From a virus (lineage: Duplodnaviria; Heunggongvirae; Uroviricota; Caudoviricetes), in the IMG/VR virus record IMGVR_UViG_3300021256_000003, positions 1-64,000 of that record: a DNA stretch of 64,000 nt; one strand, given 5' to 3'. The notes under the pieces are model-generated. The model had not been told where the DNA came from. It worked only from the letters and a program-made list of their open reading frames with translations, and did no database searches. The position numbers were made by a program, and so were the translations under genes. Below, one piece after another: positions 427-62,676 of the stretch (the stretch's first letter is position 1; each line of letters opens with the position of its first letter).

Positions 427-1208
427 AAAGATTCTTTAAATTGTTTAGCCTTGTGGCTATGATTGGTCTTCTGATGACCTCGTGTGTAACCAAAGTTGAC
501 CCTGCTGCCGAGGGTATTAAAGTTAAGCTTGTCGGAAGTGAGCGTGGTGTTGACGATGTCACTCTCGTTTCTGGATGGGTATGGTATAATCCATTTACAA
601 CTCAAATCTACGAGTATCCCAATTACGTACAGACAGTAGACTATGAGCCATTTGAACTAAACTCGAAGGATGGTTCTCGTTTTACCGTTGATCCTACTAT
701 CTTGATTCAATTGGATAAAGGTGAAGGTCCTATTGTATTTAAAAAGTATCGTAAGGAACTCGAAGACGTTCTTGCTAGTACAATATTTACTTATGTTAAG
801 GACGCATATCGAATTGAGCTTAATAAATATACAGCCGACGAGCTGATTAGTAATCGTAATCAATTTGAATCGGATGTGCAGGCTCATCTTGATACTATTC
901 TTGAACGTGAACATTTCCATTTAAGTCAAGTTACTTCAGGTCTTGCCTATCCCGAAAGTCTTGTTCAGTCAATTGATATGAAGAATAAGGTTGTTCAGGA
1001 TAAATTAAGAGCTGATAACGAAGTTGAACTTGCTAAAGCGGAAGCAGAGAAACTTATTGTAAAGGCTAAGGCAGAGGCTGAAGCTAATAGACTTCGTACT
1101 CAAGCATTGACACCTCAAGTCTTGGAGAAAGCTTGGATTGATAAGTGGGATGGTAAACTTCCTGTTTATGGAACTGTTCCCACAATGTTTAAAGACATTT
1201 CTAAATAA
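423..1208 (+). CDS. lipoprotein with SPFH/band-7 (prohibitin-like) domain
   Basis: Signal peptide plus lipobox (LLMTSC). The C-terminal EAEKLIVKAKAEAEANRLRTQA coiled coil and the region ahead of it resemble SPFH-domain proteins. Confidence 0.45.
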   Translation: MKRFFKLFSLVAMIGLLMTSCVTKVDPAAEGIKVKLVGSERGVDDVTLVSGWVWYNPFTTQIYEYPNYVQTVDYEPFELNSKDGSRFTVDPTILIQLDKGEGPIVFKKYRKELEDVLASTIFTYVKDAYRIELNKYTADELISNRNQFESDVQAHLDTILEREHFHLSQVTSGLAYPESLVQSIDMKNKVVQDKLRADNEVELAKAEAEKLIVKAKAEAEANRLRTQALTPQVLEKAWIDKWDGKLPVYGTVPTMFKDISK

Positions 1209-1217
1209 GACATAAAA

Positions 1218-1484
1218 ATGTTTTGGATCATCTGTATTATAATAGCAATCATATTTGTTGTTTCTACTGTTCGTAATATGTACGAAATTTCCTATAATGG
1301 AAATGAGGAAAAAATTACTCTATCAAGAGGAATGTGGTTGCTTATTATTATGGCTTGTTTCATTCCAATTATAAATTTAGCAGGTACCATTACATTTTGT
1401 ATACTTCTTATATGTTTAAGAGAAGATTATAAAGTTAAAGGCCCTATAGGTAAATTTATAAATTGGTTAACAACTAAAGTTTAA
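1218..1484 (+). CDS. small membrane protein, possible holin
   Basis: 88 aa with 2-3 TM segments, immediately upstream of a muramidase-type gene. Confidence 0.35.
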   Translation: MFWIICIIIAIIFVVSTVRNMYEISYNGNEEKITLSRGMWLLIIMACFIPIINLAGTITFCILLICLREDYKVKGPIGKFINWLTTKV

Positions 1485-1512
1485 TTAATTAAAATTCTTC
1501 CCTCCTCTCATT

Positions 1513-2034
1513 ATGATAAAAAATTCAGACGACAACTTTTTATTATTTCCTATTATTTTTGTAATAGGAAGTATATTTCTAGCTGTATCCATTTTAACAT
1601 TCATAGATCACAATGATCGTTTGGATGTTCTTGAACAAAGTAGAGAAACTAGTTCAATAGAAGTTCGTCTGGAGAATCCAGAATTTCTACTTTGTGGACC
1701 TAAGGATGGATTAATGGATGCTTTACTCTATTATAATATTCCTAATCCGGATATAGTATGGTGTCAGGCTTTTCTAGAAACAGGGAATTTCCTCTCTGAA
1801 AGATGTATAATTGACAATAATTTGTTTGGCCTCTATAATACTAAATTAAAACGATATATGCAATTTGACCATTGGTCAACTAGTATTAAAGCTTATAAAA
1901 CATTCTTTTCAGACAAATGGAACCCTGATGAAAACTACTATGAATATTTAGAACGAATAAAGTATGCTAAAAATGATCCTAATTATATCTCAAAGTTAAA
2001 AGAAATTCACAAACAGTTCTTTGAAATAAAATAA
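1513..2034 (+). CDS. endolysin, GH73 N-acetylglucosaminidase family, with N-terminal signal-anchor (SAR-like)
   Basis: WCQAFLETGNFLSERCIIDNNLFGL matches the GH73 Q-A-x-LE-T-G...NNLFGIK signature. An N-terminal TM helix precedes it. Confidence 0.65.
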   Translation: MIKNSDDNFLLFPIIFVIGSIFLAVSILTFIDHNDRLDVLEQSRETSSIEVRLENPEFLLCGPKDGLMDALLYYNIPNPDIVWCQAFLETGNFLSERCIIDNNLFGLYNTKLKRYMQFDHWSTSIKAYKTFFSDKWNPDENYYEYLERIKYAKNDPNYISKLKEIHKQFFEIK

Positions 2035-2505: not shown

Positions 2506-3106
2506 TAATTTTATTCAAATTAATTCTTTAATTAACAACTCTTTTAGTAAAGTACCAGATAAATCTGATGCTTACTATCATTTACAAATTCTACAACGAA
2601 AGAAAGAAAATCCCAATTCAGGATCAAATTCTAAATTAATTAAAGCTTATTTGATTGATGAAAATCATTCAATAGACTATTATAAAGATCGTATTATAAG
2701 ATATTGTAATGAATTTAATGCAAGAGCTTATATTAACCCTTCTCCAAAGTCTAAGCGAGCAACTGCTATTCAAATGTTAAATGAAATAGCTGATTGTTTT
2801 CGAAAGAATGATTTTAATTATCTTCAGAGATTATGGGATTCATCTGCTGGAAAAGTAGGAGCTATCGATAAATATTGGGTAATTGATTGTGATTATTCCG
2901 ATACTTTTAATGATAGAACTATTAACGATGTTGTTAATTTTATAGATCGAGAATGTATGCCTGAAGGTAGTAAATTTGTTGCGTGTATTCCAACTAAAAA
3001 TGGAAAACATATTATAACAAAACCTTTTGATTTGCAACATTTTAAAACTGTGTATCCTGATATTGAAGTACATAAGAATAATCCTACTGTACTTTATATT
3101 CCTTAA
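2498..3106 (+). CDS. hypothetical protein
   Basis: 202 aa ORF with no recognised motif. Confidence 0.45.
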   Translation: MVDNFIQINSLINNSFSKVPDKSDAYYHLQILQRKKENPNSGSNSKLIKAYLIDENHSIDYYKDRIIRYCNEFNARAYINPSPKSKRATAIQMLNEIADCFRKNDFNYLQRLWDSSAGKVGAIDKYWVIDCDYSDTFNDRTINDVVNFIDRECMPEGSKFVACIPTKNGKHIITKPFDLQHFKTVYPDIEVHKNNPTVLYIP

Positions 3107-3370
3107 TAAACTAAATATGTCTGATACTCTTGTTATTAATTCTAAGGACCAACTGGAGAAATATTTAAAGAAATATAATTGTAAAACAGTTGATGAATTA
3201 GATGAACTTCTTTGGTATAACTATGGAGTTACTCTACAAGTTAATATTAAAAAATATAAATATGGGTCTTGAATAGAGACGGTTGTTCTTTGTTCATAGT
3301 TTTATAGTACTGGTTGTGTAGGACCTATAGTATTATAAAATCCCTAGTATAGCTACACCTATACTTTTAT

Positions 3371-3442
3371 GGCCTCATCGTCTAGTTGGTCAGGACGTAA
3401 GATTTTCATTCTTAAAACGGGAGATCGTGCCTCCCTGAGGCT
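3371..3442 (+). tRNA. tRNA-Glu (anticodon TTC), atypical T-loop
   Basis: Acceptor GGCCTCA/TGAGGCT (G1-T72 wobble), D arm GTCT..GGAC, anticodon stem TAAGA/TCTTA with loop TTTTCAT. The T-loop ATCGTGC is non-canonical. Confidence 0.65.
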
Positions 3443-3989: not shown

Positions 3990-3995
3990 CATTAA

Positions 3996-4026
3996 GGCGT
4001 TGCTTAATAAGTGACGCCTTTTATTA
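3996..4026 (+). terminator. rho-independent terminator hairpin
   Basis: AAGGCGT-loop-ACGCCTT followed by TTTTATT. Confidence 0.55.
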
Positions 4027-4031
4027 TATTT

Positions 4032-4430
4032 GGGGATGACGTGGTTTTGACAGTAATTACAGAAGTATATAAGCATGTAGACCTCAATACTAAGCAAGTC
4101 TTAAAACTACTGGTAAATAAATTTAATTGGCAATAGCCATCGTAACATCATCAGCCTCTATAACGAGAGAAAAGCTGCCTGACCTGAAGAACAGTAAGGA
4201 TCAAGGACCTAATTTTATTAAGAATAGTTATCGCTTAATATATTATTAGGTTTGATAAGGTTAAAGGATAATTTGCAATTGTAATCTATCCGAATTATAA
4301 TTAAAGATTAGGATGTAGTATAAATGAATTTTGTTAATTTGCTAGTTTATACGAAACACTAAAATTAACTAAACATGTAGAAAGTATATCATGAATTATT
4401 TGGACTCGGGTTCGACTCCCGACATCTCCA
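4032..4430 (+). ncRNA. ssrA: tmRNA (ssrA), phage-encoded
   Basis: 5' end GGGGATGACGTGGTTTTGACAG compared with E. coli GGGGCTGATTCTGGATTCGACGGG. 3' tRNA-like domain GGACTCGGGTTCGACTCCCGACATCTCCA compared with E. coli GGACGCGGGTTCAACTCCCGCCAGCTCCACCA. Acceptor GGGGATG/CATCTCC includes a G3:U70 wobble, which is the alanine identity element. An internal tag-like frame ...NIISLYNERKAA ends at TGA 4180-4182. Confidence 0.8.
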
Positions 4431-4451
4431 CTAATAAAAAAAATAAAAAAA

Positions 4452-4685
4452 ATGATCACAATCAGTAAAATTGGAAACAATCCTAAAGAAGTTGGTGTAT
4501 GCCACACTGTTGAGGAAGCTAATACTTTATTAGATTCTCAACCAGAAATAAAGAATTCATTATATCAGCGAATAATGGAAGCTGAAGATGGTCTTATGAT
4601 AGATTATGGTAGCCATAATACTTTCTTTTTAATAAAAGGAGTTAATTATAAAGAATTTATACAAAAATTTAAGGGTAATGGGTAA
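4452..4685 (+). CDS. hypothetical protein
   Basis: 77 aa ORF. Confidence 0.4.
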   Translation: MITISKIGNNPKEVGVCHTVEEANTLLDSQPEIKNSLYQRIMEAEDGLMIDYGSHNTFFLIKGVNYKEFIQKFKGNG

Positions 4686-5202
4686 TATATTCTTTACATC
4701 AGACCCACACTTTGGACATATTAATTTACAAAAGAGTCTTCGTGGATTTGAATCTGATGAACTAATTATAGAAAATTGGAATAAAGTAGTACGTAGTAAA
4801 AAGGATAGAGTTTATGTTCTTGGCGATTTTTGTATGCAAAAACCATCTGTTATTCGAGCAATTTTGCCAAAATTAAAAGGCGAAATTATTTTAATAGGCG
4901 GAAATCATGATAATTTACCTTGTAGTCGAGAATTTATGAGACAAGGTATTCCTATTATAGGATCACTAAATCTTCATGACCTTATATTTACGCATATTCC
5001 AATTCATCCTACTCAACTTGAATTTGGATTAAAAGGAAATGTTCATGGACATATTCACGTTGAAGGAAATATAGAAGGAAGAAAATATGCCCCACAAACT
5101 ATCACTGATCCTCGATATTTTAATGTAAATCTTGAATTTCATAACTATCAATTAGTTTCAATTGATACTATTGATAAATATTATCAACAATTAAATAAAT
5201 AA
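4678..5202 (+). CDS. calcineurin-like metallophosphoesterase
   Basis: Motifs SDPHFGH, VLGDFC and GGNHDN correspond to GDxHG / GDxxDRG / GNHE. Confidence 0.7.
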   Translation: MGNIFFTSDPHFGHINLQKSLRGFESDELIIENWNKVVRSKKDRVYVLGDFCMQKPSVIRAILPKLKGEIILIGGNHDNLPCSREFMRQGIPIIGSLNLHDLIFTHIPIHPTQLEFGLKGNVHGHIHVEGNIEGRKYAPQTITDPRYFNVNLEFHNYQLVSIDTIDKYYQQLNK

Positions 5203-5204
5203 CT

Positions 5205-5702
5205 ATGCTCGGTTTACTTTTTATCTTCATAGGAGTTACAATAACTAATGTAATCACCTATACGTTAAAATCTATTATTACTATTAAGGGTAATAAGTTA
5301 TCTGCTGCATTTATAAATGCAATTAACTCTGCAGTATATATGTTACTTATTATTTATACTGTAAGTGACTTACCTATGTGGATAAAAGTTGTAACAACTA
5401 TGATATGTAATTTTGTTGGAGTTTATATAATTAAGTTGTTAGAAGAAAAAACACAAAAAGATAAATTGTGGAAAGTAGAAGCAACAATTAAATTATATGA
5501 TAAAGATAAAATTATTAATTCTCTACGCGTACACAATCTTCCATGTAGTTATTTTCCTATTACCAACCCTAATGCAAAGATGGGAGACCGAATGGAAATA
5601 AACATATATTGTAGAACCCAACAAGAATCTAAACTAGCTAAAGAAGTTTTAGATGCTTATGATACTAACTATTTTGTAGCTGAAAGTAAAACGTTAATCT
5701 GA
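5205..5702 (+). CDS. membrane protein
   Basis: 165 aa with three N-terminal TM helices. Confidence 0.4.
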   Translation: MLGLLFIFIGVTITNVITYTLKSIITIKGNKLSAAFINAINSAVYMLLIIYTVSDLPMWIKVVTTMICNFVGVYIIKLLEEKTQKDKLWKVEATIKLYDKDKIINSLRVHNLPCSYFPITNPNAKMGDRMEINIYCRTQQESKLAKEVLDAYDTNYFVAESKTLI

Positions 5703-6139
5703 TGGATAATCTTGACTGGATTACTAGATTGAATGGGTTATGTAAATCTCTTGATCAGGTTTACCGAATTAACAGTGGTGGTTGTGCAAAAGTAGCTTAT
5801 TATATAGCAAAGGAATTACATAAGCAACATATACCCTATGCTATAAAGGTTTATTTTGGAAACGATTTAACAAAAAAAGATAAACGTAAATTATCTAAAA
5901 CAGGACCTTTTAATAGTACAATTGATAAATATTATTGGACACATTTAGCTATTGTAGTTCAAAATAAGACAATTAATAGCTATTTTAGTAATTCTTATGT
6001 TGTCATAAATACTCCACATGATCTTCGATGGTTAAAGGCTTTTATAGATAATCATGAGTTTAATCCAATTTATGGAACTTCTAATAATCATATTGTTAAA
6101 TCTTACATTAAAGAATTTTTTAAAAATAATATAATATGA
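5702..6139 (+). CDS. hypothetical protein
   Basis: 145 aa ORF. Confidence 0.4.
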   Translation: MDNLDWITRLNGLCKSLDQVYRINSGGCAKVAYYIAKELHKQHIPYAIKVYFGNDLTKKDKRKLSKTGPFNSTIDKYYWTHLAIVVQNKTINSYFSNSYVVINTPHDLRWLKAFIDNHEFNPIYGTSNNHIVKSYIKEFFKNNII

Positions 6140-6957
6140 GTAGCGGTAAAGTAAAAGGAGTACAATATTACTCCAAAATTAATACTTGCTTCAAACGCGA
6201 TATGGATCACTCATCTAAGTTTTATAATTGTATCCAGCCAAACGAAACTTTATCAACTCCAGAATTGGATTATTTTAGAAAGGTTGGATTAAAATTTGAA
6301 GCAACAGAAAAAATTGATGGTGAATGCACATCAATTCATCTGATTCCTCATGTAAACTGTCAAGGACAAACTTGGAAGGATATTGCAGGTAATGAACATT
6401 GGGTTATTGATCATTATACCGTAGAAGTTCATGGTAAGACTAGTGCTGCTTCTATGAGAACGGAAGAAGTAGAACTTCTCCAAAAGATAGGAGATCTTGG
6501 TACTCTTCTTAGTATTTTCTCACAAAAGAAAACAATAACTAACGGTGAACAAACTCAAGATGTGGTATTACCTCCGGAGTCTGAAATTATCATCTTCGGA
6601 GAAACTTATGGTAAGAGAATGCAGAAAGTTGGAAATCGATATGATTCTCAAAAATTAAATTTTATCTGTTTTGATATAAAAATAGGTAATATTTGGTTAA
6701 TGAGGGATTCAATTGAAGATATTTGTAATAAACTAAATATTCAAGCAGTTCCGTTTATAGGAATGTTTACTATTGATGAAGCTATTGAATATGTAAGAAA
6801 AGGTTTTAAATCTACAATTAGCGAAGATTCAACTCTTGAAGCTGAAGGTTTGGTGCTAAAAGCTCCACTTGGTATTCTTACTCGTCTTGGAGGACGTATT
6901 ATTACTAAGATAAAAACTAAAGATTTTCAGGATTTGGAACGTGCTACTAACAGTTAA
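6136..6957 (+). CDS. ATP-dependent RNA ligase (nucleotidyltransferase superfamily)
   Basis: Motif I KIDG (ATEKIDGECTSIH), motif IV EGLVLK and motif V ITKIKTK. Its 273 aa length and the presence of a separate DNA ligase favour an RNA ligase. Confidence 0.55.
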   Translation: MSSGKVKGVQYYSKINTCFKRDMDHSSKFYNCIQPNETLSTPELDYFRKVGLKFEATEKIDGECTSIHLIPHVNCQGQTWKDIAGNEHWVIDHYTVEVHGKTSAASMRTEEVELLQKIGDLGTLLSIFSQKKTITNGEQTQDVVLPPESEIIIFGETYGKRMQKVGNRYDSQKLNFICFDIKIGNIWLMRDSIEDICNKLNIQAVPFIGMFTIDEAIEYVRKGFKSTISEDSTLEAEGLVLKAPLGILTRLGGRIITKIKTKDFQDLERATNS

Positions 6958-6960
6958 TTT

Positions 6961-7656
6961 ATGGAAAAGAAAACTTCAATAACAGTTAGTGCGTTTTCTG
7001 ATTTGCATGGAAATCTCATTAACATCCCTGAATGCGATTTAGCTTTTATGTGTGGAGATTTCTCTCCAGTACAATATGATCGTAATTTAATAGCAGTCGC
7101 AATGTGGATACAGAATTTTATGATTCCTTGGCTTAAAGAGCAAAAGAAAAATTACGATAAATTTATCTTTATTGCAGGGAATCATGATTTCATTTGTGAA
7201 TCTGAAGAATGGAAAGACTGGTTTCAAAATCAGTTAAAAGAAAATGGTCTTGGAGACTCTGTAATTTATTTAGAGGATTCAACTTATAACTATAAAGGAA
7301 TTGACATTTATGGATGTCCTCATTCAGAGATATATGGTTGGGCTTTCTACAGTGGAGATTATAAGGATTACATTCCATCTCCCCAAGCTGACATTATGTT
7401 AGTTCATGCCGCACCAAATATTGGAGGATTAGGAGATACAATACTAGGAGGTTATCCTAGATCATTTGGATCTAATTGTCTTGTAAATGGAATCACTACT
7501 CCTTGTTTAAATCTTCAATATCTATTTTGTGGACACATTCATGGAGGAAGTCATAGACCTTACAAACATGAGAATATCACTATGTATAATGTTTCTATCC
7601 TTGATGAACAATATCAAGTACATTATGAACCTTTAACTACGTCATTATGCTTTTAG
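6961..7656 (+). CDS. calcineurin-like metallophosphoesterase
   Basis: Motifs SDLHGN, CGDFS, IAGNHDF and GHIHGG. Confidence 0.65.
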   Translation: MEKKTSITVSAFSDLHGNLINIPECDLAFMCGDFSPVQYDRNLIAVAMWIQNFMIPWLKEQKKNYDKFIFIAGNHDFICESEEWKDWFQNQLKENGLGDSVIYLEDSTYNYKGIDIYGCPHSEIYGWAFYSGDYKDYIPSPQADIMLVHAAPNIGGLGDTILGGYPRSFGSNCLVNGITTPCLNLQYLFCGHIHGGSHRPYKHENITMYNVSILDEQYQVHYEPLTTSLCF

Positions 7657-7762
7657 CTGGTATAATTATAGCAATATTTGTTGTTTCTTTGGCTTTGATA
7701 TTTAAATCTTGGTTCGAAGAAACTGAAGACGCAATTGAAGACCCAGATCATTTTATTTCGCC

Positions 7763-8140
7763 ATGAAGAAGATTTTATTATTGTTTGTTTTGTTTTTTAG
7801 TTTTGTAGCTAATGCTCAACTAATTAACCCAACTTACTATGTTGTTAATAACCTTGGATACGATACATGTACTGTAGTTTATAATATAGATAGTATTAAA
7901 GAGATTACAGTAAGTGTTAATAATCAATTATTTTTGAGTTCTGATAAATGTTCAACTTGCTTTTATGTGTGGAATAGTGGAAATGATTTTACAGGTATAA
8001 CTATGGGATATGGATTTTATCAATATCTCGTAACTTATAATAAACCTGGTAATTATATATTAGAACTTACAAAATATCCAAGTGTTTCTGAAATGAAAGT
8101 ATTACACGATAAGATAAATATTATTGTAACTTCTCCATAA
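7763..8140 (+). CDS. secreted protein with signal peptide
   Basis: MKKILLLFVLFFSFVANAQ is a type I signal peptide. Confidence 0.45.
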   Translation: MKKILLLFVLFFSFVANAQLINPTYYVVNNLGYDTCTVVYNIDSIKEITVSVNNQLFLSSDKCSTCFYVWNSGNDFTGITMGYGFYQYLVTYNKPGNYILELTKYPSVSEMKVLHDKINIIVTSP

Positions 8141-8146
8141 ATTTAT

Positions 8147-8506
8147 ATGGGATTAGACATTTACTTTGAAAAGCGTAAAATTGGAAGTAATGAAAAACCC
8201 GTCGAGGTTGCATATTTCCGAAAAGTCAATTTCTTAGTTAGATACTTTGACTATGAAGATAATTGTAGTTATAAAGTTATATCTAAATCAGAAATTGTCG
8301 AATTATTAGATCGTTGTAAAGAAGTTTTAGATAATCACGAGTTGGCACAAGAACTACTACCGGTACAAGAAGGATTTTTCTTTGGAAGTTATGACTATGA
8401 TGAATACTATTTTGACGATGTAAAAAAAGTACAAGAAACATTTACACAATTAGTTGAAGAAATAGATTTTAACAAAGAGGAACTTCTAATGTATTGTTGG
8501 TGGTAG
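8147..8506 (+). CDS. hypothetical protein
   Basis: 119 aa ORF. Confidence 0.4.
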   Translation: MGLDIYFEKRKIGSNEKPVEVAYFRKVNFLVRYFDYEDNCSYKVISKSEIVELLDRCKEVLDNHELAQELLPVQEGFFFGSYDYDEYYFDDVKKVQETFTQLVEEIDFNKEELLMYCWW

Positions 8507-8507
8507 A

Positions 8508-8756
8508 ATGGATCAAGAAGTAATACAACAACTAACATCCATTTATCGAATAAAGGTAAAGTGGTGGAATGATAATTCAAATTCATCAGTATATTTAGAA
8601 TTTTATGATGTACAGATTGAAAATGATAGAACAAAAGTTATTTTGTTAATTACCTTTCCTTACTTTTTATCTGATTTAATGGATGTTTGTGTATATTTTC
8701 ATACAGAAGCAGAAAATTGCATAATTGAAAAAGATAAAGTTACTCTTATTATATGA
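8508..8756 (+). CDS. hypothetical protein
   Basis: 82 aa ORF. Confidence 0.35.
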   Translation: MDQEVIQQLTSIYRIKVKWWNDNSNSSVYLEFYDVQIENDRTKVILLITFPYFLSDLMDVCVYFHTEAENCIIEKDKVTLII

Positions 8757-8968
8757 CTAGAGAACATTTTGTAACTGCATATCATTATGATATTATGGAT
8801 ATAAATTATCCATTAACCTGTCGTAATTGTGTACATTCGGATGGAAATTCATTATGCAAATTAATGATTAAATGGAATTGTCAAGATACATTGGTAGATC
8901 CACAAGGAAAATGTTTTAATCATGAGTTAAAACATAATAAGCCACATGAACAATTAACTTTATTTTAA
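8753..8968 (+). CDS. hypothetical Cys-rich protein
   Basis: 71 aa with CxxC-like pairs. Confidence 0.35.
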   Translation: MTREHFVTAYHYDIMDINYPLTCRNCVHSDGNSLCKLMIKWNCQDTLVDPQGKCFNHELKHNKPHEQLTLF

Positions 8969-8969
8969 T

Positions 8970-9638
8970 ATGAAACTTTTAATAGTTCCTGATGTTCACG
9001 GACGTGATTTCTGGATAAAACCTTGTAGAGACATTAAAAAGTATGATAAAATCATATTTCTTGGTGATTATCACGATCCGTATCCTTTTCAAGTAAGTGA
9101 ACATACATCTCGTCAACGTTTAAGAGAAGATTTAGTACCATTTGTTGAAGACAATAAGGACAAAATAATATGTTTAAAGGGTAATCACGATTGTTCTTAT
9201 ACGATAGGGATTATGGCAGATCGTCATGATCGTTATAATCATAATAAAATTAAGAACCTTCTTGAGAGAATGAATTTAAAACTATCTTACAAAATAGACA
9301 ATTTCTTATTTACTCATTCTGGTGTATTACCAGAGTGGTTAGAAAGGAATAATCTTACTTTAGAAGATGTTTTGAATGATAATATTTCTGAGCAAGCATT
9401 GTCTCAAGTATCTCCGAATCGAGGAGGATGGGATGATTGTGGAAGTTGTATTTGGGGAGATGTTAGAGAATATGCTCTTTCTCAAAAAATTTCAGGAATT
9501 TATCAAATTTTTGGACATACTATGTTATATCCAGATTTTAATCCCATTATAACAGAAGAATTTGCATGTCTTGACACAATGAATTGTTATTCGTTGGATA
9601 CTGAAATTGGATATACATCATTAACAAAAATCGATTAA
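8970..9638 (+). CDS. calcineurin-like metallophosphoesterase (Ser/Thr phosphatase-like)
   Basis: Motifs VPDVHGRD, LGDYHD and KGNHD. This is the third paralogous metallophosphoesterase in a 5 kb stretch. Confidence 0.7.
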   Translation: MKLLIVPDVHGRDFWIKPCRDIKKYDKIIFLGDYHDPYPFQVSEHTSRQRLREDLVPFVEDNKDKIICLKGNHDCSYTIGIMADRHDRYNHNKIKNLLERMNLKLSYKIDNFLFTHSGVLPEWLERNNLTLEDVLNDNISEQALSQVSPNRGGWDDCGSCIWGDVREYALSQKISGIYQIFGHTMLYPDFNPIITEEFACLDTMNCYSLDTEIGYTSLTKID

Positions 9639-10547: not shown

Positions 10548-11294
10548 ATGGCTTGGTATACAGGTGCTAATAAGTGTATTTATTCTTGTTCAGGTGCAAT
10601 TGAACTCCCTTTGAAACAACGTGTATGTTTTGCAGACGCCTTTCGCTGCTTATATACTGATAGAAAAAGCACAGTTGATTATAAAATCTATATAGCTCAA
10701 TTTGATAAAGGTTCAGCTTCTAATTTTTGTACACCTGAAGAAATAAAATACACTTTAAATAAATTAAGAAGAATAGTTCCATTTTCTTTTAAACTTGACT
10801 TTGCTCCTCATACTTTTGATAGACAGCCTTACGGAGTTCTTAATCTTCACATTGAAGGAGATAAATTAACTCACAAAATGATCTTAACGTTTACTCGTTG
10901 TTTCTTTGAATATCCATCTAATGTAGCGGCTAGAGAAGCAATAGATGTATATCCGGAAATTATAAAAAGGTTAAGAGTAGGAAATTCTATTAGTTGGTTT
11001 AATGTTTTCATTACAATTGAATCGTGTTGTGTCGCAAGAGGCGGAGGACATACTTTTACGTGCTCTTATCAACCTGATTCTCCTCTGTTTACTACAGATG
11101 AAATGATTAATCGAATTCATGATAATCCAGGTATTAGTCTTAATAATTTCTTCGGATGTGGAAATGAGCGACTAAAACATGATGATTATGAATTTCCAAA
11201 TACTATGGAAAAACTTACTAACGGAAAACTAATTGAAAAACGAATTCAACATTATGTTGAATTATTAAAAACAAAATTACAATGGCTGAGATAA
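10548..11294 (+). CDS. hypothetical protein
   Basis: 248 aa ORF. Confidence 0.45.
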   Translation: MAWYTGANKCIYSCSGAIELPLKQRVCFADAFRCLYTDRKSTVDYKIYIAQFDKGSASNFCTPEEIKYTLNKLRRIVPFSFKLDFAPHTFDRQPYGVLNLHIEGDKLTHKMILTFTRCFFEYPSNVAAREAIDVYPEIIKRLRVGNSISWFNVFITIESCCVARGGGHTFTCSYQPDSPLFTTDEMINRIHDNPGISLNNFFGCGNERLKHDDYEFPNTMEKLTNGKLIEKRIQHYVELLKTKLQWLR

Positions 11295-11929
11295 AAGTTT
11301 ATGTAGTGGGTTATTCAACTAATTATGCAAATTGGATTAAAGACCACGTATTAGTTGATAAACTAGAAGATGCGAATATAGTTCTTTTTACCGGAGGCGA
11401 AGATGTAGATCCTTCTTTATATGGTCATGAAAATGTACGTTCTTATACAAATAAAGATCGTGATCTTAAAGAGAAAGCTATCTTTGAGCAAATGAGTCAG
11501 TCTCAACTTGCTTTAGGTATTTGTAGAGGATCTCAATTACTATGTTGCCTCAACGGTGGTAAACTATTCCAAGATGTGACCAATCATGCTATAGGTCGTA
11601 CTCATCAAATTACAGATGGTAGTCGTATACTAGAAATAACATCGACTCATCATCAAATGCAGTGTCCTTTTAATCTTCCTTCAAAGACATATCGCATATT
11701 ATGGACTACTCCTGAGCGTTTAAGTAGTCGTTATGCATGGGGAGGTACGGAAGATAGAATAATTCCTCCTTGTGAACCGGAGATTGTTGAGTATCATGTA
11801 AAAGACAAACCAATCAGTCTTGCTATTCAAGGGCATCCAGAGATGATGCGAATGACAAGTCCGACAATCAATGAATTAAATAAATTAGTTAGATCATGCT
11901 TAAAACACATAGAATCACAGAGTTTCTGA
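11282..11929 (+). CDS. class I glutamine amidotransferase-like / gamma-glutamyl hydrolase (peptidase C26) family
   Basis: Catalytic Cys motif LALGICRGSQLL and a C-terminal His-Glu motif IQGHPE. Confidence 0.65.
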   Translation: MAEIKVYVVGYSTNYANWIKDHVLVDKLEDANIVLFTGGEDVDPSLYGHENVRSYTNKDRDLKEKAIFEQMSQSQLALGICRGSQLLCCLNGGKLFQDVTNHAIGRTHQITDGSRILEITSTHHQMQCPFNLPSKTYRILWTTPERLSSRYAWGGTEDRIIPPCEPEIVEYHVKDKPISLAIQGHPEMMRMTSPTINELNKLVRSCLKHIESQSF

Positions 11930-12714
11930 TAGGAACTGATCCTGAATTGTTCCTTGTAAGTCAGAAAACAGGTAAAGTAAAATCAGCAGTACGAGTTATT
12001 CCTGGAACTAAAGAACATCCCCATAAGATTAAAGAATTTGGTGATGGATTTGCTGTACAGACTGATAATATTTTGGCAGAGTTTAATGTTCCGCCAGTTA
12101 ATTCCCAAGAAGCATTCGTTCATAATATTATGAGAATGCAACAACACATTAAAGAAATGGCACAAGCGAAGAATCCTGACTTAGATATTAAGTGTATGGC
12201 TAGTGCGCATGTACCGAAGAGCGAATTACGCAGCAAACAAGCAAAATTGTTTGGCTGTGATCCTGACTACAATATCTATACTGGTGAACAAAATGAAATA
12301 CAGCGTATTCCTGAGAGTGATTTACGTTCAGCTGGATTTCATTTGCATCTAGGATATAACAATAATAATATAGATAATTCAATGAATATATTGTTTTATC
12401 TTGACTTTTATTTAGGAGTTCCTAGTGTACTTATTGATCCCGATACTGAAAGAAGATCACTCTATGGTAAAGCTGGATGTTTCCGACTTACTTCTTATGG
12501 TCTTGAATATCGTAGTCTTTCATCATATATGATGAAAGATGAAAAACATTTAAGATGGATTTGGGATCAAACTATACAAGCAATACAGGCTTATAATCAT
12601 GGTGTAGCACTTCCTGAAGCTAGACATGTTGTTAATTGTATTAATAATAATGATCAAAAGTTAGCTCGAGATCTCTGCAAATATTATAAACTATGTGTGG
12701 ATTGTTTGGAATAG
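11896..12714 (+). CDS. carboxylate-amine ligase, GCS2 (YbdK-like) family
   Basis: N-terminal LIGTDPELFLV (GxExEFxLV-like) and AGFHLHLGY (GxHVHVG-like). Confidence 0.5.
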   Translation: MLKTHRITEFLIGTDPELFLVSQKTGKVKSAVRVIPGTKEHPHKIKEFGDGFAVQTDNILAEFNVPPVNSQEAFVHNIMRMQQHIKEMAQAKNPDLDIKCMASAHVPKSELRSKQAKLFGCDPDYNIYTGEQNEIQRIPESDLRSAGFHLHLGYNNNNIDNSMNILFYLDFYLGVPSVLIDPDTERRSLYGKAGCFRLTSYGLEYRSLSSYMMKDEKHLRWIWDQTIQAIQAYNHGVALPEARHVVNCINNNDQKLARDLCKYYKLCVDCLE

Positions 12715-13949
12715 TAAGTTCTTCTCCAAGAACTTTAGATTTAAGAGCGTTTTGTACGCTCGGTGTTATGAATGATTCTAGAGGAGGTGATTCTTGTGGT
12801 ATCTCTCTCGATGGTAATATTGAATATGGTTTTGGTAAAGAAAGTGCTCTTTTTATCGATTTTATGAGAGTTTCCAAAACATTATTTAAACGGAATCGAA
12901 TCAAAGTAGCATTAGGACATTGTCGTAAAGCTTCTGTCGGAGGAGTTACCCTAGAGAAAGCACAGCCAGTTAAAGTCTTTGATAAAGATGGAAATCTTAG
13001 TATGATCGTTATTCATAATGGAACTATTCATAATTATCAAGACTTAGCCGATAGGTATCTTCCTGGAGAAGATATTTCTGATTTATCTGATTCTCAAGTT
13101 ATGGCTCGGATTTTTCAGAAAGGTCATTATTCGGTGTTGAAAGAATATCGAGGTGGTGGAGCTTTTGTTATTCATGACTTAAAGAAAAATACTGTTTATC
13201 TGTTTAAAGGAGCATCTAAAGCTACTGAATATGCTAAAGAAATTACTGAAGAAAGACCTCTTTTCTGTTGCTATGATAAAGATGCTTTTATTTTTAGTTC
13301 TTTAGCGTATCCATTAGTTGGATTATATCCTAAGAACAAAATCTATCGTATTCCTTGTAATACTCTTTATAAAGTTCATAATGGTAGACTTGTTAAACTT
13401 GAGGTTTTAGATAGGTCTGAATGTTTGCAAAGTAAACCTACAGTTGTAACTGTTAATTCTTATTCTGGCTTCTATCAAGACAGATATATTGATTTTAATG
13501 TTAAAACTGGACGTTATAAGTTAGGAAAGAATTATCTTACCGGAGAACAATTCTTTTCTGACTATGGATATCATTATGATATAAAGAGTCAATGGGCTAA
13601 TTCTTATTGGTTCTGGGGAGGATATATGCTTCCTGGACAGAAATCTTATGAAGCTGTACTTAAATATAGTACAGAGTGCAAGGATCCTCAAAAGGCATTA
13701 CAACTTGCAAAAGCATTAACTTATCTTCCATTTGATGAAAAGGGGTGCTGGATGGAATCCTATGAAGATGGTTCTTTTCATGTTGTAAAAGACAATAAGG
13801 TATCATTTCCTTTGAGTAGGAACGAACTGCATATTAAGAATGGTAGAGCTGTTATGACTTCATATTTGAGTACAATGGATGCTACTGTTTTTAATGATTT
13901 ATCTGATGATATGATTCAAAAAATTGTAAACAATGTATGCCGTAAATGA
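12693..13949 (+). CDS. class II (Ntn) glutamine amidotransferase domain protein
   Basis: N-terminal MCGLFG nucleophile and NDSRGGDSCG, corresponding to HRGPDxxG. Confidence 0.65.
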   Translation: MCGLFGIVSSSPRTLDLRAFCTLGVMNDSRGGDSCGISLDGNIEYGFGKESALFIDFMRVSKTLFKRNRIKVALGHCRKASVGGVTLEKAQPVKVFDKDGNLSMIVIHNGTIHNYQDLADRYLPGEDISDLSDSQVMARIFQKGHYSVLKEYRGGGAFVIHDLKKNTVYLFKGASKATEYAKEITEERPLFCCYDKDAFIFSSLAYPLVGLYPKNKIYRIPCNTLYKVHNGRLVKLEVLDRSECLQSKPTVVTVNSYSGFYQDRYIDFNVKTGRYKLGKNYLTGEQFFSDYGYHYDIKSQWANSYWFWGGYMLPGQKSYEAVLKYSTECKDPQKALQLAKALTYLPFDEKGCWMESYEDGSFHVVKDNKVSFPLSRNELHIKNGRAVMTSYLSTMDATVFNDLSDDMIQKIVNNVCRK

Positions 13950-15141
13950 ACTTACAAGAAGATTTGAAGATTATTCAAGTTTAGTTAGATGTGCTGTGGC
14001 ATATGAGAATGGTATTATAGAATTTGGCTACGTTAATCCGAAAGAGAACTTATGTGTGTATTGCTATGATGATCATGGAAAGTTTTTAGCTAGATATAAT
14101 TCTTTAAAAGACTGTTTGAACTTTAATAGAGAATATGGTATATATACTTTTGATAAGGTTCCTAATGCAAACATTTATGCTGCTGGAAATTTTCCATATA
14201 CTTTTACTAAATACTATAATACTCGATTTTTGAGTGATACTTTTCAGAAATGGCAAGAAAATTACCATAGCATTCAGTTTAAATATGCTGACGAAATGCC
14301 TTATACTTTTGGGTTAGAATTTGAGACTAGTGGAGGATATATTCCAGAGCATGAACTATTTAATTTAGGATTAATTCCTTTAAGAGACGGTTCTATTAGA
14401 GGTCTTGAATATTCTACAATTGTATTAAAGGGGCAACAAGGATTAAACACTCTATACGAAATGACTAAATGTTTGCGTAAATATACAATCTTTGATAAAG
14501 AGTGTTCGTTACACATTCATTTAGGCAATTGGAAACTTGATGAATCTACTATTTTAAAGCTGAATAATTTATTTAGTTCAGCTTCTTTAGGACAATATCT
14601 CCCAAGAGATACTTATAATACTGAACGATATAAAGCAACTGGTAAGAGCTATTGTAAGAAGAATGCTAGCTACAGTACTTTTAATGATTTGTATCGTTCT
14701 TTAGTAGGTAGATCTTATTATGGAGATCTGTATCAACCTCATCCTGATGATACTAATGGAACTAGAAAATGGAATATTCATTCAAGATATAAGGCATTGA
14801 ATCTTATAAATGCTTTATGTTACAATTTTGGTAAAACTGCAGAATTTAGAATATTGAGGCCGACTTATAATTTTGATAAAATTATTTGTTGGTTATATGT
14901 TTTCGCTGCGTTTATCAAATATGCCGAAAATGGATATCGAGTGACTACTTCTGTTGATAAGATTCTTGAAAGAGTTTACTCTCCAGAACTTGCTACTATT
15001 CTTAAACAGTTCTTAAAATTAGAACAAGAGGTAGTAGATAAGCAAACAAATAACGGAGACTATATTGGTGCAGATATTTCATTAGAAGACTCAATTATCA
15101 CTAAAGAGAACTTATCTCCTGATAACAATTTCTTCTATTAA
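13933..15141 (+). CDS. hypothetical protein, co-operonic with the amidotransferase/ligase genes
   Basis: 402 aa ORF whose start overlaps the upstream gene. Confidence 0.5.
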   Translation: MYAVNELTRRFEDYSSLVRCAVAYENGIIEFGYVNPKENLCVYCYDDHGKFLARYNSLKDCLNFNREYGIYTFDKVPNANIYAAGNFPYTFTKYYNTRFLSDTFQKWQENYHSIQFKYADEMPYTFGLEFETSGGYIPEHELFNLGLIPLRDGSIRGLEYSTIVLKGQQGLNTLYEMTKCLRKYTIFDKECSLHIHLGNWKLDESTILKLNNLFSSASLGQYLPRDTYNTERYKATGKSYCKKNASYSTFNDLYRSLVGRSYYGDLYQPHPDDTNGTRKWNIHSRYKALNLINALCYNFGKTAEFRILRPTYNFDKIICWLYVFAAFIKYAENGYRVTTSVDKILERVYSPELATILKQFLKLEQEVVDKQTNNGDYIGADISLEDSIITKENLSPDNNFFY

Positions 15142-15687: not shown

Positions 15688-16155
15688 ATGCTTAAAGATA
15701 CAATTGATAATGATATACAATCTGCAATCAAATCTAATGCTGAAGAGTATAAAATTAATACTTTGCGTGCTATTAAGACCGAGCTTTTAAATACAGAGAA
15801 AGGTATTGGAGGCAAAAAGCCAACTACAATTACTGATGTTATTGAAGTTAGTGTCCTTAATAAAATGTGCAAGGAGCGTAAAGAAAGTGCTGACCAATAT
15901 CGAAAAGGTGGAAGAGAAGATCTAGCTATTAATGAAGAGAAAGAAATTTCTATTATTAAAACTTATCTTCCAGAAATGCCTTCTGATGTGGAAGTTATAA
16001 GTTATATATCATCGTGTATAGAAAATTTAGCAAAAGAGCATCAAATTTCTTCTCGCGATACTGGTACTATTTTGAAATCTGTTAAAGAAAAGTATCCATT
16101 TATTAATGGAAAATTAGTTTCAGATACTATTGCAGCTTACGTTAAATCTCACTAA
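15688..16155 (+). CDS. GatB/YqeY domain protein
   Basis: ESADQYRKGGREDLAINEEKEISIIKTYLPEMPS...GKLVSD closely matches the YqeY/GatB C-terminal domain consensus. Confidence 0.75.
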   Translation: MLKDTIDNDIQSAIKSNAEEYKINTLRAIKTELLNTEKGIGGKKPTTITDVIEVSVLNKMCKERKESADQYRKGGREDLAINEEKEISIIKTYLPEMPSDVEVISYISSCIENLAKEHQISSRDTGTILKSVKEKYPFINGKLVSDTIAAYVKSH

Positions 16156-56815: not shown

Positions 56816-59800
56816 TTAATTTTCTCTCATTGATTGTAAGATGGGTTTAACTGTTCTGACCGCAGCCATATTTTCAGAAGTTGCATTTAATAATGTTTTC
56901 TCTCCTGTAAATACATCAAATCCATCTTCAATAACATTTCTAAGAGCACCAAAAGAATATGGTCTCCATTCAATTAATGGCTCACCAATAGAATTTATAA
57001 AATTAAAGTCTTGGAATGAACGTGTAATAGTTTGATTAATAAAATGAGAAGATACATAACTAATTGCATTACCCATATCTCCTTTATCTTTATTAAATTC
57101 CTTCTTTTCATCATCATCCCATTTTCCTAATAACAATGCTACTAAATGTCCAACAACTAACCACATAAACATATCTATTGCTAAATGCTTTAAGTTAGAA
57201 CGATAACAGGTTCGTAGATTATCGTTAGGATTATTCCATAATTCTTGCCAAGCTTCTTGATATCCATTTTCTTTAACAGAATCATAGAAGTGAGCTAGAG
57301 TTAATAAAATACCTTCTTGATGCTGTCCTTCCCAACGCCGTACTTTAACGCCACTACAATTAGGGTCATCAATAGTTACAAATCCTTTACTTAAATCAAT
57401 TTCTCCATTTTCATCTTTGGTATAATATAACTACTAACCATTCTCCTAATAATCCACAAATCTTCCTAATAATTTAGAACCACCAGGAGCAAGATATTGA
57501 TTCTTTTTAGCTGACCAATATGTTTTCATCTACATGTATAATCCGCCTAAAAACATATAATGTACAAGTGATTTATCTTCTTTATTATAATAACCATATA
57601 CATTATCGGCAATAGACTTCATACTTTGAGATTCTCTATTAGAATATGCTCTAGGTAAATCATCTCCAAGTTTAAATAAACTACCATCAGGATTTACTAC
57701 ACCTTCGTTAATAAACTCTTTTGCAGCAGCAAAATAACGAGCATAAGATTCACGTTCCTGCTCATTAAATTGACTTAAAGATTTGCCTTGCTTTTTGGCT
57801 TGGACATAATCTTTATAACGAGCATCTTTAGAGAAATCGTATATTAACTCACCATTATCATTTAAAGTATGAGCTTCAAAGGAACCATCACGTCTCATCT
57901 ATGCTTCAAAGATAGTCATTCGATTATAGTAATCAGGACGGGATGTAAAACGAAATGCTAAGTCATATACATGAGTAAACCATCCTTTGTCTGACGATAG
58001 TCTGTTTGCATACTAATCGGCGTCCATATCATTAATACCATATAACTCATTAATTCTTGACAATACAGTAGGAGTTAAATGACTGTGGAAAAGTTCAGTT
58101 TCAACATGTTTAGCAGAATCCCACATATGTTTAGATGTAAATGCATCAGTTCCATCTGGTTTCTTAATAATAAGACCTAAATTTTTCCAAATACCATCAA
58201 CTCTCTAATATGTCCATTGAACAGGGCTAAATCCTAATGCCAGCAAAGAGGCTACTGATCTGGCTCTACCAGTCAATCGCATTAATTTAGATATTTTATC
58301 ATCAGATAAGTTTTGATTGTGTACTTGTACTTTAACAATATTATCAAGATAATCAAGAGTATCTTTAAAGTTCTCTTTATCAGTAGGATTTATAAAGTTA
58401 CCTTGGTGAGCAATTGCAATTGCACACGCTTTCATTTTAATCAATTCAGAATCAAAAGCATTCTTTCTAGCATACTAATAAGAATGATTTAAGAGTAATG
58501 TTTCAAGATTATGCTCATAAGCATTAGCTCCATATTTACGAAGCATTCTCATTCGAGTAGTTTCATCGTTTCCAGCATCAAATACTACAGATGCTTTATA
58601 AATATCATTATTAGTTTGTTGTGTTTCTGCATCTGTAGATGCTATAAAATCCATAGTATTAGATAGGGCATTTTTAGGAGCTAAATTCTAAACTAATGTT
58701 TTTAATGAACCTAAAAGATTGTCAGTCTTTAATTTAGAACCAGTCGATGCAGCTAGTAAAGGAACTCGATAATATCTTCTATCACCAGAATTTTTCCACA
58801 TTTCTAAGTTAGCAGCATCCTTTGGCCATCTATCTCTGTTTATAGTATCAAGAACATACTCTAAGAACTTCTTTTTAACTCCTGTTAAAGTATTAGGATT
58901 AACAAAAACAAAATCTCCATCAGGAGTTACTTCTGTCATATCCATATATAAACTAGTTTGATTACTTAAGTACTCCTATACAGTATTAAACCCAACAGAT
59001 TCTTTTAATTCTTTTACATATTTATTTACTGTATAACTTTGTTTTAGAATAATATCTCTTACTTTCTAGTTTACATTTTTAACACTCACAGATACAGTAT
59101 TAAGCAGCTATGAACTAAAGTTACCAGGATTTTCAAGATTTAAACCTTCAGCACCTTCACGAAGAATTCTTCTAAACGTCTATAACCATTTGTCAGAATC
59201 TTTAGTTTGTTGTCTCATAATAACTCCATTAATGTCATTATAGGCAACAGCTGCTTGATTATATAATTGGATAATAGGATCAGCTAAAGAATTACTATCA
59301 CGAGCTACATTAATAGTTCTATTTGGGTAGAGTCTATTAATTGTCTACATTATATCCTCTAACTCACTTTTTATTTTTAAAGGATTTGTTTCTCCAGCCC
59401 AATCAAATCCTGCGCTTGTTAATTCTTTTTTAATTAAATTATATTCAGGAGCACCACTATTCATAATTTCATTTATTTTTAAACGAAAATAATCAAGTTG
59501 ACTTAATAACTTAATTTTACCAGAATTAAATTTATCTTCTTCAAGAAGACTATGTTTAATTAGAGCATTCCAGTTATATAAATATTCTGAATTATAAATA
59601 GGCATTAGTCTTTGAGTAGAAGGATTTAAAACATTAATACTTTCAAATTGAGGTGTTCCTGCCCAATCTAAATTATTAAGAACAAGCATAGCCTCCATTC
59701 CTTCAATATTGCCTCTATTGGCTTTTAAGATTAAAGAGTTAGCATTAGAAGACTCCTCAATATCTTTAGCAAATGATCCATTTATATTAGTTCTACCTTC

Positions 59801-61618
59801 AGAAAATTTATAATTGTAATGTAAATCTCCGTTTACAATTTTAAATGCGACACAAGCTTTAGTTTGAATATTTTGTAAAACAACTATTCCGAAGTTTTTT
59901 GCAGTAGGCAGATCAATCACTTCGTAATTACCTTTACAATAAGGCTTCATTAGGTTTTCTAGATTTGCTTTATCAAATCCAGAATCTTTAAATGAAGCAT
60001 ATCGATATTCAAATGGTTGCCCTGACTTTACTGCTTCGTTAAAACTATCAATAAACGCATCAACTCTTTGGACATTTCTATCATTTATAGAACGTAACTA
60101 TTCCTAGACCTTTTGTACTAACTAAACTTTAGCAAAGTCTAAATTATTATTTATCGGAATAACAATTGGATCGTCGCTATAAGGTGTTTTATATTCTAAA
60201 GTTCCTAAAGCAGTGGGCTCAAAAGCTTTTTCTTCTTTTAATTTTTCACTAACCTACTCTTCTGACATATTTCTATCAGTTAAATGGTTAGGAAACCAAA
60301 TAGCCATTTGTTTAGTGACTTTTTCAATTAAATTAGAAGAAGTAGCAGAAACTTTATTTTCTGCGGGTATAAATTTATCAAGAGTATCATTAATATTTTC
60401 AGAATTAACTTCTGTTAATACCTATTGGATAACAGGGCTATCTTCAGATAAATCATTCTGTTTATAAGATAGACCGTCATAAGTATAACTTAATTTTTCT
60501 GGATCAGTTTCACCAGTATCGTTTAAATGAAATCCCTTTAATGTAATAGGCACAATAATACATTGTCCACCTTGAGTATTAACTCCAAATTTTCTTAGAA
60601 TACGTTGATAAGTACCAAGCTATAAAGTAAATGCACGTTTCTTTGCAGAGTTATATTGGTCGTAGCTTTTTGGTGAAGTTTTATAGTCGACAATGTGTAC
60701 ATATCCATTTTCATCAACAACTAATAAGTCAATTACACCGTGTAAAGTATGACATCCTTTATACTCATTAATATCGCCAGCAATATCTAGTTCAGGAAAG
60801 AATCTAGCTTTCGCTCCGAATTTCTGCTGTAGATTTACACGAAAATCCTACAACATTTTAACCATTTCTAAAAACTAGGATTCACTAATAAGATCCCCTT
60901 TCTTTATAGAATGGTCATAAATACTTAAAGGATCAGATTTCCAACGTTCATATTGAAGTCTAGCATAATCTGGATTAGCAGATTCCTCTTCAAAAACATA
61001 TTTATCTCCATTTTTAGAAAATAACCATTCAGATACAGAGTGTAAGGCTGTACCTATCTAACCTTGTTGTTTCCATTTTCTTTCAATTACATCTTTCCAT
61101 TTATTGTATGTCTCATCAGAATATGTTTGTTCTGGATTTAGAGTAGTTCCAGGATCGCTTATAGCTAGATATTCATTAATAATTTGAATTTCGTCTTCAG
61201 TAAATGTTCCGGGATTAATTGTACCAGAGACTGTACGAGGTTTCCAAGCATCAAGTCTTCTATTCCAATATTCTTCACCTCTAAATTCAGGAGTAATTAC
61301 ACTACCATCTTCAGTACGGAATGCAGCGATAAATGCATTAACACCCATCACAGGAGGTTTCTCTTCAATATTCATAGTACCGTCATCAGCATATTCGACA
61401 GTGCGATTTTCATAATATTGTCTACTTTCTTCTTTAGCTCTTTTACCAGCTTCAGTAACAGCGCCTTGAATTAAAGATACATTAGTTGCTCCTGTAGCAT
61501 TCATTTCAAAAACTACATCGCCTATCTATTCCATTAAAGGAAGCTTTTCACAGATAAAATCTGCTAATTGAACTTCGTTTCCTATTAAATTTCCTTTATA
61601 AGTATATGTACATTTCAT
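56816..61618 (-). CDS. very large late (virion/structural?) protein, about 1600 codons, translated with TAG as a sense codon
   Basis: Six track fragments (56816-57172, 57530-57898, 58205-58444, 58688-58945, 59345-59950, 61058-61504) all share one frame. Each checked break is TAG: 57530, 57899, 58013, 58205, 58688, 59345, 61058 and 61526. It terminates with TAA at 56816-56818. The upstream limit is TGA at 61646-61648, giving a candidate start at ATG 61618 or 61534. Confidence 0.55.
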
Positions 61619-62673: not shown

Positions 62674-62676
62674 TTA

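Follow-up and report, generated by a model that had tools for sequence, protein, structure and literature searches.

We analysed a 64,000-nt stretch of Caudoviricetes DNA (positions 1 to 64,000 of IMG/VR record IMGVR_UViG_3300021256_000003; hereafter the window), which carries a complete, one-piece transfer-messenger RNA (tmRNA, ssrA) gene on its plus strand at 4032-4430. The gene measures 399 nt including the discriminator A, as delimited by ARAGORN, the Rfam model RF00023 and comparison with the 3' ends of host genes. ARAGORN reported a tmRNA at 4032-4431 with the tag peptide GNSHRNIISLYNERKAA*, and an Infernal search with RF00023 matched 4032-4433 (96.5 bits against a gathering score of 47, E = 2.1e-36), covering the model end to end from position 1 to 374. 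This score is far beyond chance. A first-pass annotation, made from the letters alone, had proposed a phage-encoded, ssrA-like tmRNA with an atypical tag at this site and had named Infernal and ARAGORN as checks; both programs detected the gene independently, and the proposal was further borne out by sister alleles and covariation. The gene is the sole tmRNA in the window, runs uninterrupted by any intron, and is surrounded by 11 tRNA genes.

The 5' end of the gene reads GGGGATGACGTGGTTTTGAC from position 4032, and its 3' end consists of the T arm and acceptor strand GGACTCGGGTTCGACTCCCGA-CATCTCC-A, the last base of which, at 4430, is the discriminator A. CCA is not encoded; CTA comes next. 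A 7-bp acceptor stem, formed by GGGGATG (4032-4038) and CATCTCC (4423-4429), joins both ends of the gene and contains the G3:U70 pair of alanine identity, which is invariant in all sequence variants compared below. The T arm (4406-4422; stem TCGGG/CCCGA, T-loop TTCGACT) carries a T-loop of the GGTTCGAnTCC type, the anticodon arm is lacking and helix 2 is long, all of which are standard features of tmRNAs. The 5' end, the 3' domain, the acceptor stem with its alanine identity pair and the internal frame had all been described in the first-pass annotation, and each is present where it was placed.

A tmRNA occupies the same site in six independent assemblies (L012, L013, L014, L028, L029 and L162), in four sequence variants. 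The genes of L012 and L013 are identical to that of the window, the L162 gene differs by 8 substitutions, and the L014 gene is an intron-interrupted variant. L028/L029 (172,406-nt contig, flanking protein 83% identical) carries a tmRNA with 83% nucleotide identity, and the L028 allele scores 83 bits against RF00023. By an exact-protein look-up, the gene adjoining the tmRNA was located on two shorter contigs besides one of 174,954 nt (L012; ERZ12302812 NODE_95), and we take the phage genome to be about 175 kb in size and of gut type. Samples ERZ12302812, SRR873596, ERR12543426 and SRR16020804 yielded the gene. The window itself is phage DNA. It encodes a DNA polymerase (phrog_1252), an ATP-dependent DNA ligase, RNA ligases and several metallophosphoesterases, and a Pfam scan of its 103 open reading frames (ORFs) matched NrdD, Thy1, dUTPase, RNase H, a DnaB-like helicase, a sigma-70-family protein and a crAss001_48-domain protein. 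The GC content of the tmRNA (32%) is phage-like (window, 31%), whereas 100 sampled Bacteroidota host tmRNAs range from 40 to 59%. Since all six assemblies share the flanks and the gene has a phage-like composition, host contamination and chimeric assembly could be excluded.

For the secondary structure, we wrote 100 pairs in 14 helices by hand on the window sequence (acceptor stem, helix 2, pseudoknots (PK) 1 to 4, stop-codon hairpin and T arm) and scored them on an alignment of four alleles: the window, spliced L014, L162 and L028. In this alignment 98.0% of cells form standard pairs. All seven acceptor pairs hold in the four variants. Helix 2 (5' strand 4051-4078, 3' strand 4373-4402) links the tRNA-like domain to the pseudoknot ring; its 23 pairs are 97-100% paired, with two cells broken in L028. 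Directly upstream of the resume codon lies PK1 (4079-4115; AGAC/GUCU and UACUA/UGGUA), both stems of which can form; the segment is invariant across the variants (0% diverged between the window and L028), and its pairing thus receives no covariation signal either way. The tag stop codon is contained in the stop-codon hairpin (helix 5, 4178-4206), taken from the minimum free energy fold, where seven of eight pairs are invariant and one is broken by a TGA>TAA change in L014. Seven stems in PK2 to PK4 close the ring. PK2 (4208-4258) has three stems and shows two wobble changes besides its compensatory ones; PK3 (4266-4302) consists of GGAUA/UAUCC and AAUUGUAAU/AUUAUAAUU, its first stem being only 85% paired, where L028 may use a shifted register; and PK4 (4318-4369) combines GUAUAAAU/GUUUAUAC, GUUAAUUU/AAAUUAAC and three wobble changes, its second stem being invariant.

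Thirteen pairs change on both sides yet stay paired. These compensatory double changes fall at pairs 5 and 7 of the acceptor stem (G3:U70 remaining unchanged), in three of the five T-stem pairs (GAGAG/CTCTC in L028), at one pair of helix 2 (U-A to C-G), at two pairs of PK2, at one pair of the first and three of the second stem of PK3, and at one pair of PK4. When the 3' partners were slid by 1-3 columns as a control, 0-2 double-change pairs and 30-43% pairing remained, and none of 500 shuffles reached 13 compensatory pairs. Divergence between the window and L028 is distributed unevenly along the gene: it amounts to 5.6% in the tag ORF and 4% in the stop-codon hairpin after the stop, to 43% in PK3 and 27% in PK4, and to 32-35% in the tRNA-like domain, where every stem change is compensated. 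This is the pattern expected of an RNA whose fold and encoded peptide both matter.

The tag reading frame called by ARAGORN runs from 4129 to 4182 on the plus strand, from the resume codon GGC through GNSHRNIISLYNERKAA to the stop TGA. It closes with GCT GCC TGA and lacks the canonical YALAA motif, which confirms the atypical internal frame ending in KAA-TGA noted at first pass. With 17 codons the phage tag is longer than the 9-10 codons found in hosts, and its C-terminus is KAA where host tags end in LAA or MAA. Among the alleles, the 54 nt of the frame show three synonymous changes (AAC>AAT twice, TAT>TAC), one change of the stop from TGA to TAA, and a single replacement (N12T). Together with the invariant PK1, these changes point to selection for translation of the tag. 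That the tag might be a chance ORF was ruled out by its host-like resume context and the mostly silent changes. The tag stop is TGA or TAA in the alleles, never TAG; since host tags already end in TGA or TAA, this choice of stop codon represents no adaptation. In E. coli, ClpX recognises LAA-COOH. Because the phage tag ends in KAA and not in LAA, proteins carrying it may, speculatively, meet a different fate from host-tagged ones.

To place the gene among bacterial tmRNAs, a 5' motif pair (GGTTTTGACAG...AAGCATGYAG) was scanned in one genome per species across 185,579 species. At least 120 loci matched, and among the matches listed the record titles name Bacteroidota with two exceptions, one labelled Clostridium and one an uncultured bacterium. 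The listed host tmRNAs are 366-413 nt long and encode the tags GENNYALAA or GNTQYAMAA; nearly all of those called by ARAGORN begin with Gly, as does the phage tag. Like chromosomal ssrA of Bacteroidota, especially Bacteroidales and Flavobacteriales, the phage gene is a one-piece tmRNA of ~395-400 nt with four predicted pseudoknots, carries the 5' motifs GGGGnTGAC..GGTTTTGACAG and AAGCATGTAG, resumes translation at GGC (Gly) after TAAnT (aaatttaatt directly before GGC in the phage), closes its tag with AA and a TGA or TAA stop, and ends in ...CTCCAC with no encoded CCA. In L028, the 5' motif has drifted (GGTATTTGACAG). The kinship with Bacteroidales ssrA guessed at first pass is thus supported by the motifs, the Gly resume codon and the 3' ends. 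Apart from its composition and its tag, the phage gene differs from these relatives in its location in a phage genome, where it is dispensable, and in its sequence, being at most 63% identical to any of the 100 sampled host tmRNAs; given this low identity, its capture from a host was not recent. A tmRNA of Bacteroidota type supports a Bacteroidota host for a phage lineage that has no cultured or deposited relatives.

The tmRNA forms a cassette of ~410 nt between a terminator-like hairpin (3994-4020, plus strand), which follows the upstream 137-aa ORF and marks the left edge, and the ATG at 4452. In two independent assemblies of syntenic relatives (L160 and L161, with ~74% identical flanks), the tmRNA is cleanly absent: the upstream 137-aa ORF and the hairpin are kept and are followed by 54 nt and then the downstream 77-aa ORF. 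The tmRNA is an accessory cassette with a natural presence/absence polymorphism, and it is dispensable, as two syntenic relatives do without it. No tmRNA was found near more distant homologues of the neighbouring phosphoesterase (46-71% identity; L030, L031, L032, L034 and L035). A scan for sigma-70-type promoters returned sites no more numerous than in shuffled sequence. One further candidate, a Bacteroides-type -7 motif at 4025-4032 (consensus TAnnTTTG), overlaps the mature 5' end and was set aside as chance in AT-rich DNA.

In one sister allele (L014, 2156-3421; Logan SRR24639052_69150), the tmRNA is split by an 864-nt insertion (2537-3400) between T-loop nucleotides 2 and 3, that is, between GGGTT and CGACT. 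A segment made up of the last 9 nt of the 5' exon and the first 236 nt of the insertion (2528-2772) matches the group I intron model RF00028 at 96.7 bits; the 5' splice site has a U.G pair, and the last base of the insertion is G. After P9, on the opposite strand, lies a 191-aa ORF (2753-3325), whose best Pfam match (E 0.009) stayed below the family cut-off and is not significant. ARAGORN misses this intron-split gene. Group I introns in the T-loop are known from intron-form tmRNA genes, and the L014 site corresponds to 'position 3', at which introns have been reported only from the class Bacteroidia (PMC11915505). No tmRNA intron above 700 bp, at any position, is reported in that source; the L014 intron differs from those described in its length of 864 nt, its residence in a phage gene and its antisense 191-aa ORF. 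Two further observations concern introns. An unrelated phage-type tmRNA with a tag of about DNTIIVRMNSELRMSA (L026, ~970-1982, minus strand; IMGVR_UViG_3300002220_000359) appears to be interrupted by ~703 inserted nt behind T-loop nucleotide 7, with U as the -1 base and G as the last base; over part of its length the insertion shares 69% identity with the L014 intron, and an antisense ORF seemingly lies inside it. This tmRNA was reported neither by ARAGORN nor by Rfam at the gathering threshold. In L028, another group I intron (RF00028, 71.5 bits; 13974-14254) lies in the Peptidase_C26 gene region and is followed by ORFs with faint LAGLIDADG matches; the window counterpart is intron-free.

Phage tmRNAs have been documented before, so the gene described here is a further, well-supported example of an already known kind and no new system. 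In huge phages, tmRNAs and sometimes SmpB have been reported (Al-Shayeb et al. 2020, PMC7162821), and tmRNAs are rare in gut viral genomes (7 of 788; PMC12291355). Phage annotation pipelines call them routinely (ARAGORN within Pharokka), and a curated tmRNA database covers RefSeq viruses (PMC11915505). With the tmRNAs of huge phages and other phages, the present gene shares its phage-borne nature, its setting among many tRNA and translation-related genes, and its rarity. It differs in that some huge phages encode SmpB, none of which was found here, and in that this phage recodes TAG in its late genes. Long non-canonical tags also occur in the tmRNAs of four tRNA-rich IMG/VR contigs (L016, L020, L022 and L025), among them AEDIMSIPTSLTRGKSVFARNTELAFAAS and DNTIVVRMNQELRLSA, and unusual tags may be typical of phage tmRNAs in general. 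A permuted tmRNA was additionally observed on an IMG/VR contig (L021; RF04321, 49 bits).

No SmpB was detected in the regions searched: tblastn with E. coli SmpB found nothing below E 0.9 in the 64-kb window, SmpB was not among the 25 families listed of the 55 matched in the Pfam scan of the window ORFs, and none occurred among the precomputed Pfam matches of the flanks (L012 and L158). With no SmpB found and no CCA encoded, the RNA would have to use the SmpB, alanyl-tRNA synthetase (AlaRS), EF-Tu and CCA-adding enzyme of its host, on which it probably relies. The 'private' trans-translation system envisaged in the first-pass annotation does not stand in this light.

We propose that the tmRNA would be transcribed together with the neighbouring tRNA and early genes, that its 5' end would be cut by host RNase P and its 3' end trimmed, and that the CCA would be added by the host enzyme. 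Host AlaRS would then charge it with alanine via G3:U70, the pair that is conserved while neighbouring pairs covary, and host SmpB and EF-Tu would bring it to ribosomes that have stalled on broken or non-stop mRNAs. Translation would resume at GGC, append A-GNSHRNIISLYNERKAA and stop at UGA (UAA in the sister allele), so that tagged peptides in infected cells would end in ...AGNSHRNIISLYNERKAA. Most likely, the phage gains additional capacity for ribosome rescue while mRNAs and tRNAs are being cut during infection. The neighbouring genes, comprising more than 11 tRNAs, two RNA ligases, three metallophosphoesterases, a cREC_REC protein and a YqeY-like protein, suggest a translation-maintenance module.

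Overall, we consider it probable that the phage-encoded tmRNA at 4032-4430 is functional, that it is of the standard one-piece form and of Bacteroidota ancestry, and that it constitutes a dispensable ~410-nt cassette. Several points weigh against this assessment. The function as a tmRNA is deduced from sequence alone. The structure was built by hand while viewing L028, which inflates the percentage of paired cells and, to a much lesser degree, the count of double changes. No more than four variants could be compared, L028 alone supplies all 13 double changes, and PK1 and several stems never vary and hence lack covariation support. The SmpB search covered ~80 kb of the ~175-kb genome. No promoter was recognised, and the terminator-like hairpin lies 11 nt upstream of the tmRNA. 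Finally, as the gene is absent from close relatives, any benefit would be conditional.

An alternative role is suggested by the genetic code of the phage. In its late genes TAG is clearly a sense codon. A minus-strand block at 56816-63999 holds 24, 10 and 2 in-frame TAGs in three consecutive ORFs, the first of which (56816-61645) accommodates its 24 within 1610 codons, while the second (61615-62673) contains the 10. In an adjoining and overlapping 18-kb locus (L158, 1-18209), reading TAG as sense raised ORF coverage from 0.50 to 0.986 and the longest ORF from 265 to 3441 aa. The suspicion that this genome changes the meaning of a stop codon, voiced at first pass, was thus substantiated by in-frame TAG counts and ORF coverage alike. 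The tmRNA itself sits in a tRNA-rich plus-strand block that reads well under the standard code.

As part of a recoding toolkit, an idea put forward at first pass, the phage tmRNA would deal specifically with ribosomes paused at in-frame UAG codons of late genes whenever suppressor tRNA runs short or RF1 is impaired; in competition with host tmRNA, it would attach a tag that does not act as a host degron. A precedent exists in recoded E. coli lacking RF1, where tmRNA acts at unassigned UAG and blocks UAG-containing viruses by tagging and degradation (PMC6207430). The KAA terminus in place of host LAA and a tag stop that is TGA or TAA but never TAG fit such a role as well. The latter point loses its force, as host tags stop at the same codons, and rescue at UAG would yield a truncated late protein whichever tag is appended. 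Furthermore, the tmRNA is missing from syntenic relatives, the short pieces around other IMG/VR phage tmRNAs with odd tags give no clear local indication of recoding, no suppressor tRNA(CUA) was found in the window, 5 kb upstream (L012) or 10 kb downstream (L158), and no release-factor gene appeared in the ~80 kb examined. The link between tmRNA and recoding is circumstantial, and we regard this role as unlikely. The same doubt applies to its more specific form, in which the tmRNA would be an accessory of the code switch whose ERKAA tag, as opposed to YALAA, escapes host degradation of the ClpXP/SspB type. If it were true, the phage RNA would outcompete host tmRNA at in-frame UAG pauses or on mRNAs cut by defence nucleases, and ribosomes would be recycled without the host tagging and degradation response that blocks UAG-containing viruses in RF1-deficient cells.

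Less probable still, and in our estimate very unlikely, is a decoy that would titrate host SmpB or AlaRS, or block host trans-translation, without productive tagging. Its closest parallel is the mini-tmRNA of mycobacteriophage DS6A, like the present RNA a phage-encoded tmRNA derivative needing host partners, which lacks a coding sequence and is reported to inhibit the endogenous tmRNA (PMC11915505); the lack of a phage SmpB in the regions searched would also suit a decoy. Unlike the DS6A RNA as described there, the RNA studied here keeps its tag frame, all four predicted pseudoknots and the full mRNA-like domain. Its PK1 is invariant, its tag ORF is conserved with mostly silent changes, and a host-like resume context and the stop-codon hairpin are present, a pattern that speaks for selection on translation of the tag. 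That the gene is a passenger without function, whether as a host ssrA fragment in decay, as the remnant of an attachment site or through chimeric assembly, is strongly disfavoured: ssrA is a frequent integration site of phages and genomic islands, which often carry parts of it (PMC11915505), and the exact 29-nt 3' end recurs in unrelated viral contigs, but the gene is full-length and no 3' fragment, is at most 63% identical to the sampled host genes, has phage-like composition and the same flanks in six assemblies, combines 13 compensatory changes with a conserved tag frame, and is accompanied by no integrase family among the Pfam matches listed for the window ORFs or recorded for the flanks.

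The phage belongs to an uncharacterised lineage. Its DNA polymerase is at most 34% identical to that of any deposited phage, and no nucleotide match to the lineage was obtained in searches of INPHARED or IMG/VR. Specifically, blastn with the tmRNA and megablast with 25 kb against INPHARED phages returned nothing relevant, the exact 5' 20-mer of the tmRNA was absent from IMG/VR, an IMG/VR search for relatives with the neighbouring phosphoesterase found nothing, and JGI metagenome contigs scanned with conserved 22- and 25-mers gave no match. The exact 3' 29-mer matched only unrelated tmRNAs in viral contigs and is unspecific, as the T arm is too conserved, and a match to a 17-mer from PK1 (L033) was dismissed as chance, no tmRNA being present there. 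PHROGs gave no classification for the three large late proteins, and the sole hint at a phage family is the one crAss001_48 Pfam domain.

Downstream of the tmRNA, a run of RNA-end-processing genes extends over 4678-9635 on the plus strand, comprising a phosphoesterase (phrog_547; 4678-5199), an RNA ligase (6136-6954) and two metallophosphoesterases (6961-7653 and 8970-9635). A cREC_REC domain (cyclic-phosphate processing) also occurs in the window, and together these genes look like a tRNA/RNA repair module. The 11 tRNA genes of the window (at 2069, 3371, 16967, 17146, 18028, 18114, 19025, 19801, 19884, 20071 and 27069) include tRNA-Ile(UAU) and tRNA-Leu(UAG). None of them encodes CCA; as in the tmRNA, a C always follows the discriminator, and the next base is T or A. 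At 15688-16152 (plus strand), some 800 nt upstream of a tRNA cluster, lies a gene for a YqeY-like protein (PF09424, E 6e-27), whose domain is related to the tRNA-binding tail of GatB and which may bear on the charging of suppressor tRNA in a TAG-recoding phage. A further plus-strand cluster at 11282-15138 combines Peptidase_C26, a phiEco32-like COOH-NH2 ligase, a glutamine amidotransferase and Amidoligase_2. Phage gene sets of this kind have been predicted to synthesise or attach small peptide or amide modifications.

Despite routine annotation, phage tmRNAs are almost never examined. The value of the present case lies in a full-length gene for which the variation among alleles demonstrates selection on structure and tag frame alike, and in a tag strongly diverged from the host degradation tag. 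Relatives with and without the gene, together with an intron-bearing allele, provide ready material for comparison, and the setting is a phage in whose late genes TAG takes on another meaning. The tmRNA at 4032-4430 would therefore make a good model for asking whether phage tmRNAs merely add rescue capacity or redirect the fate of tagged proteins.

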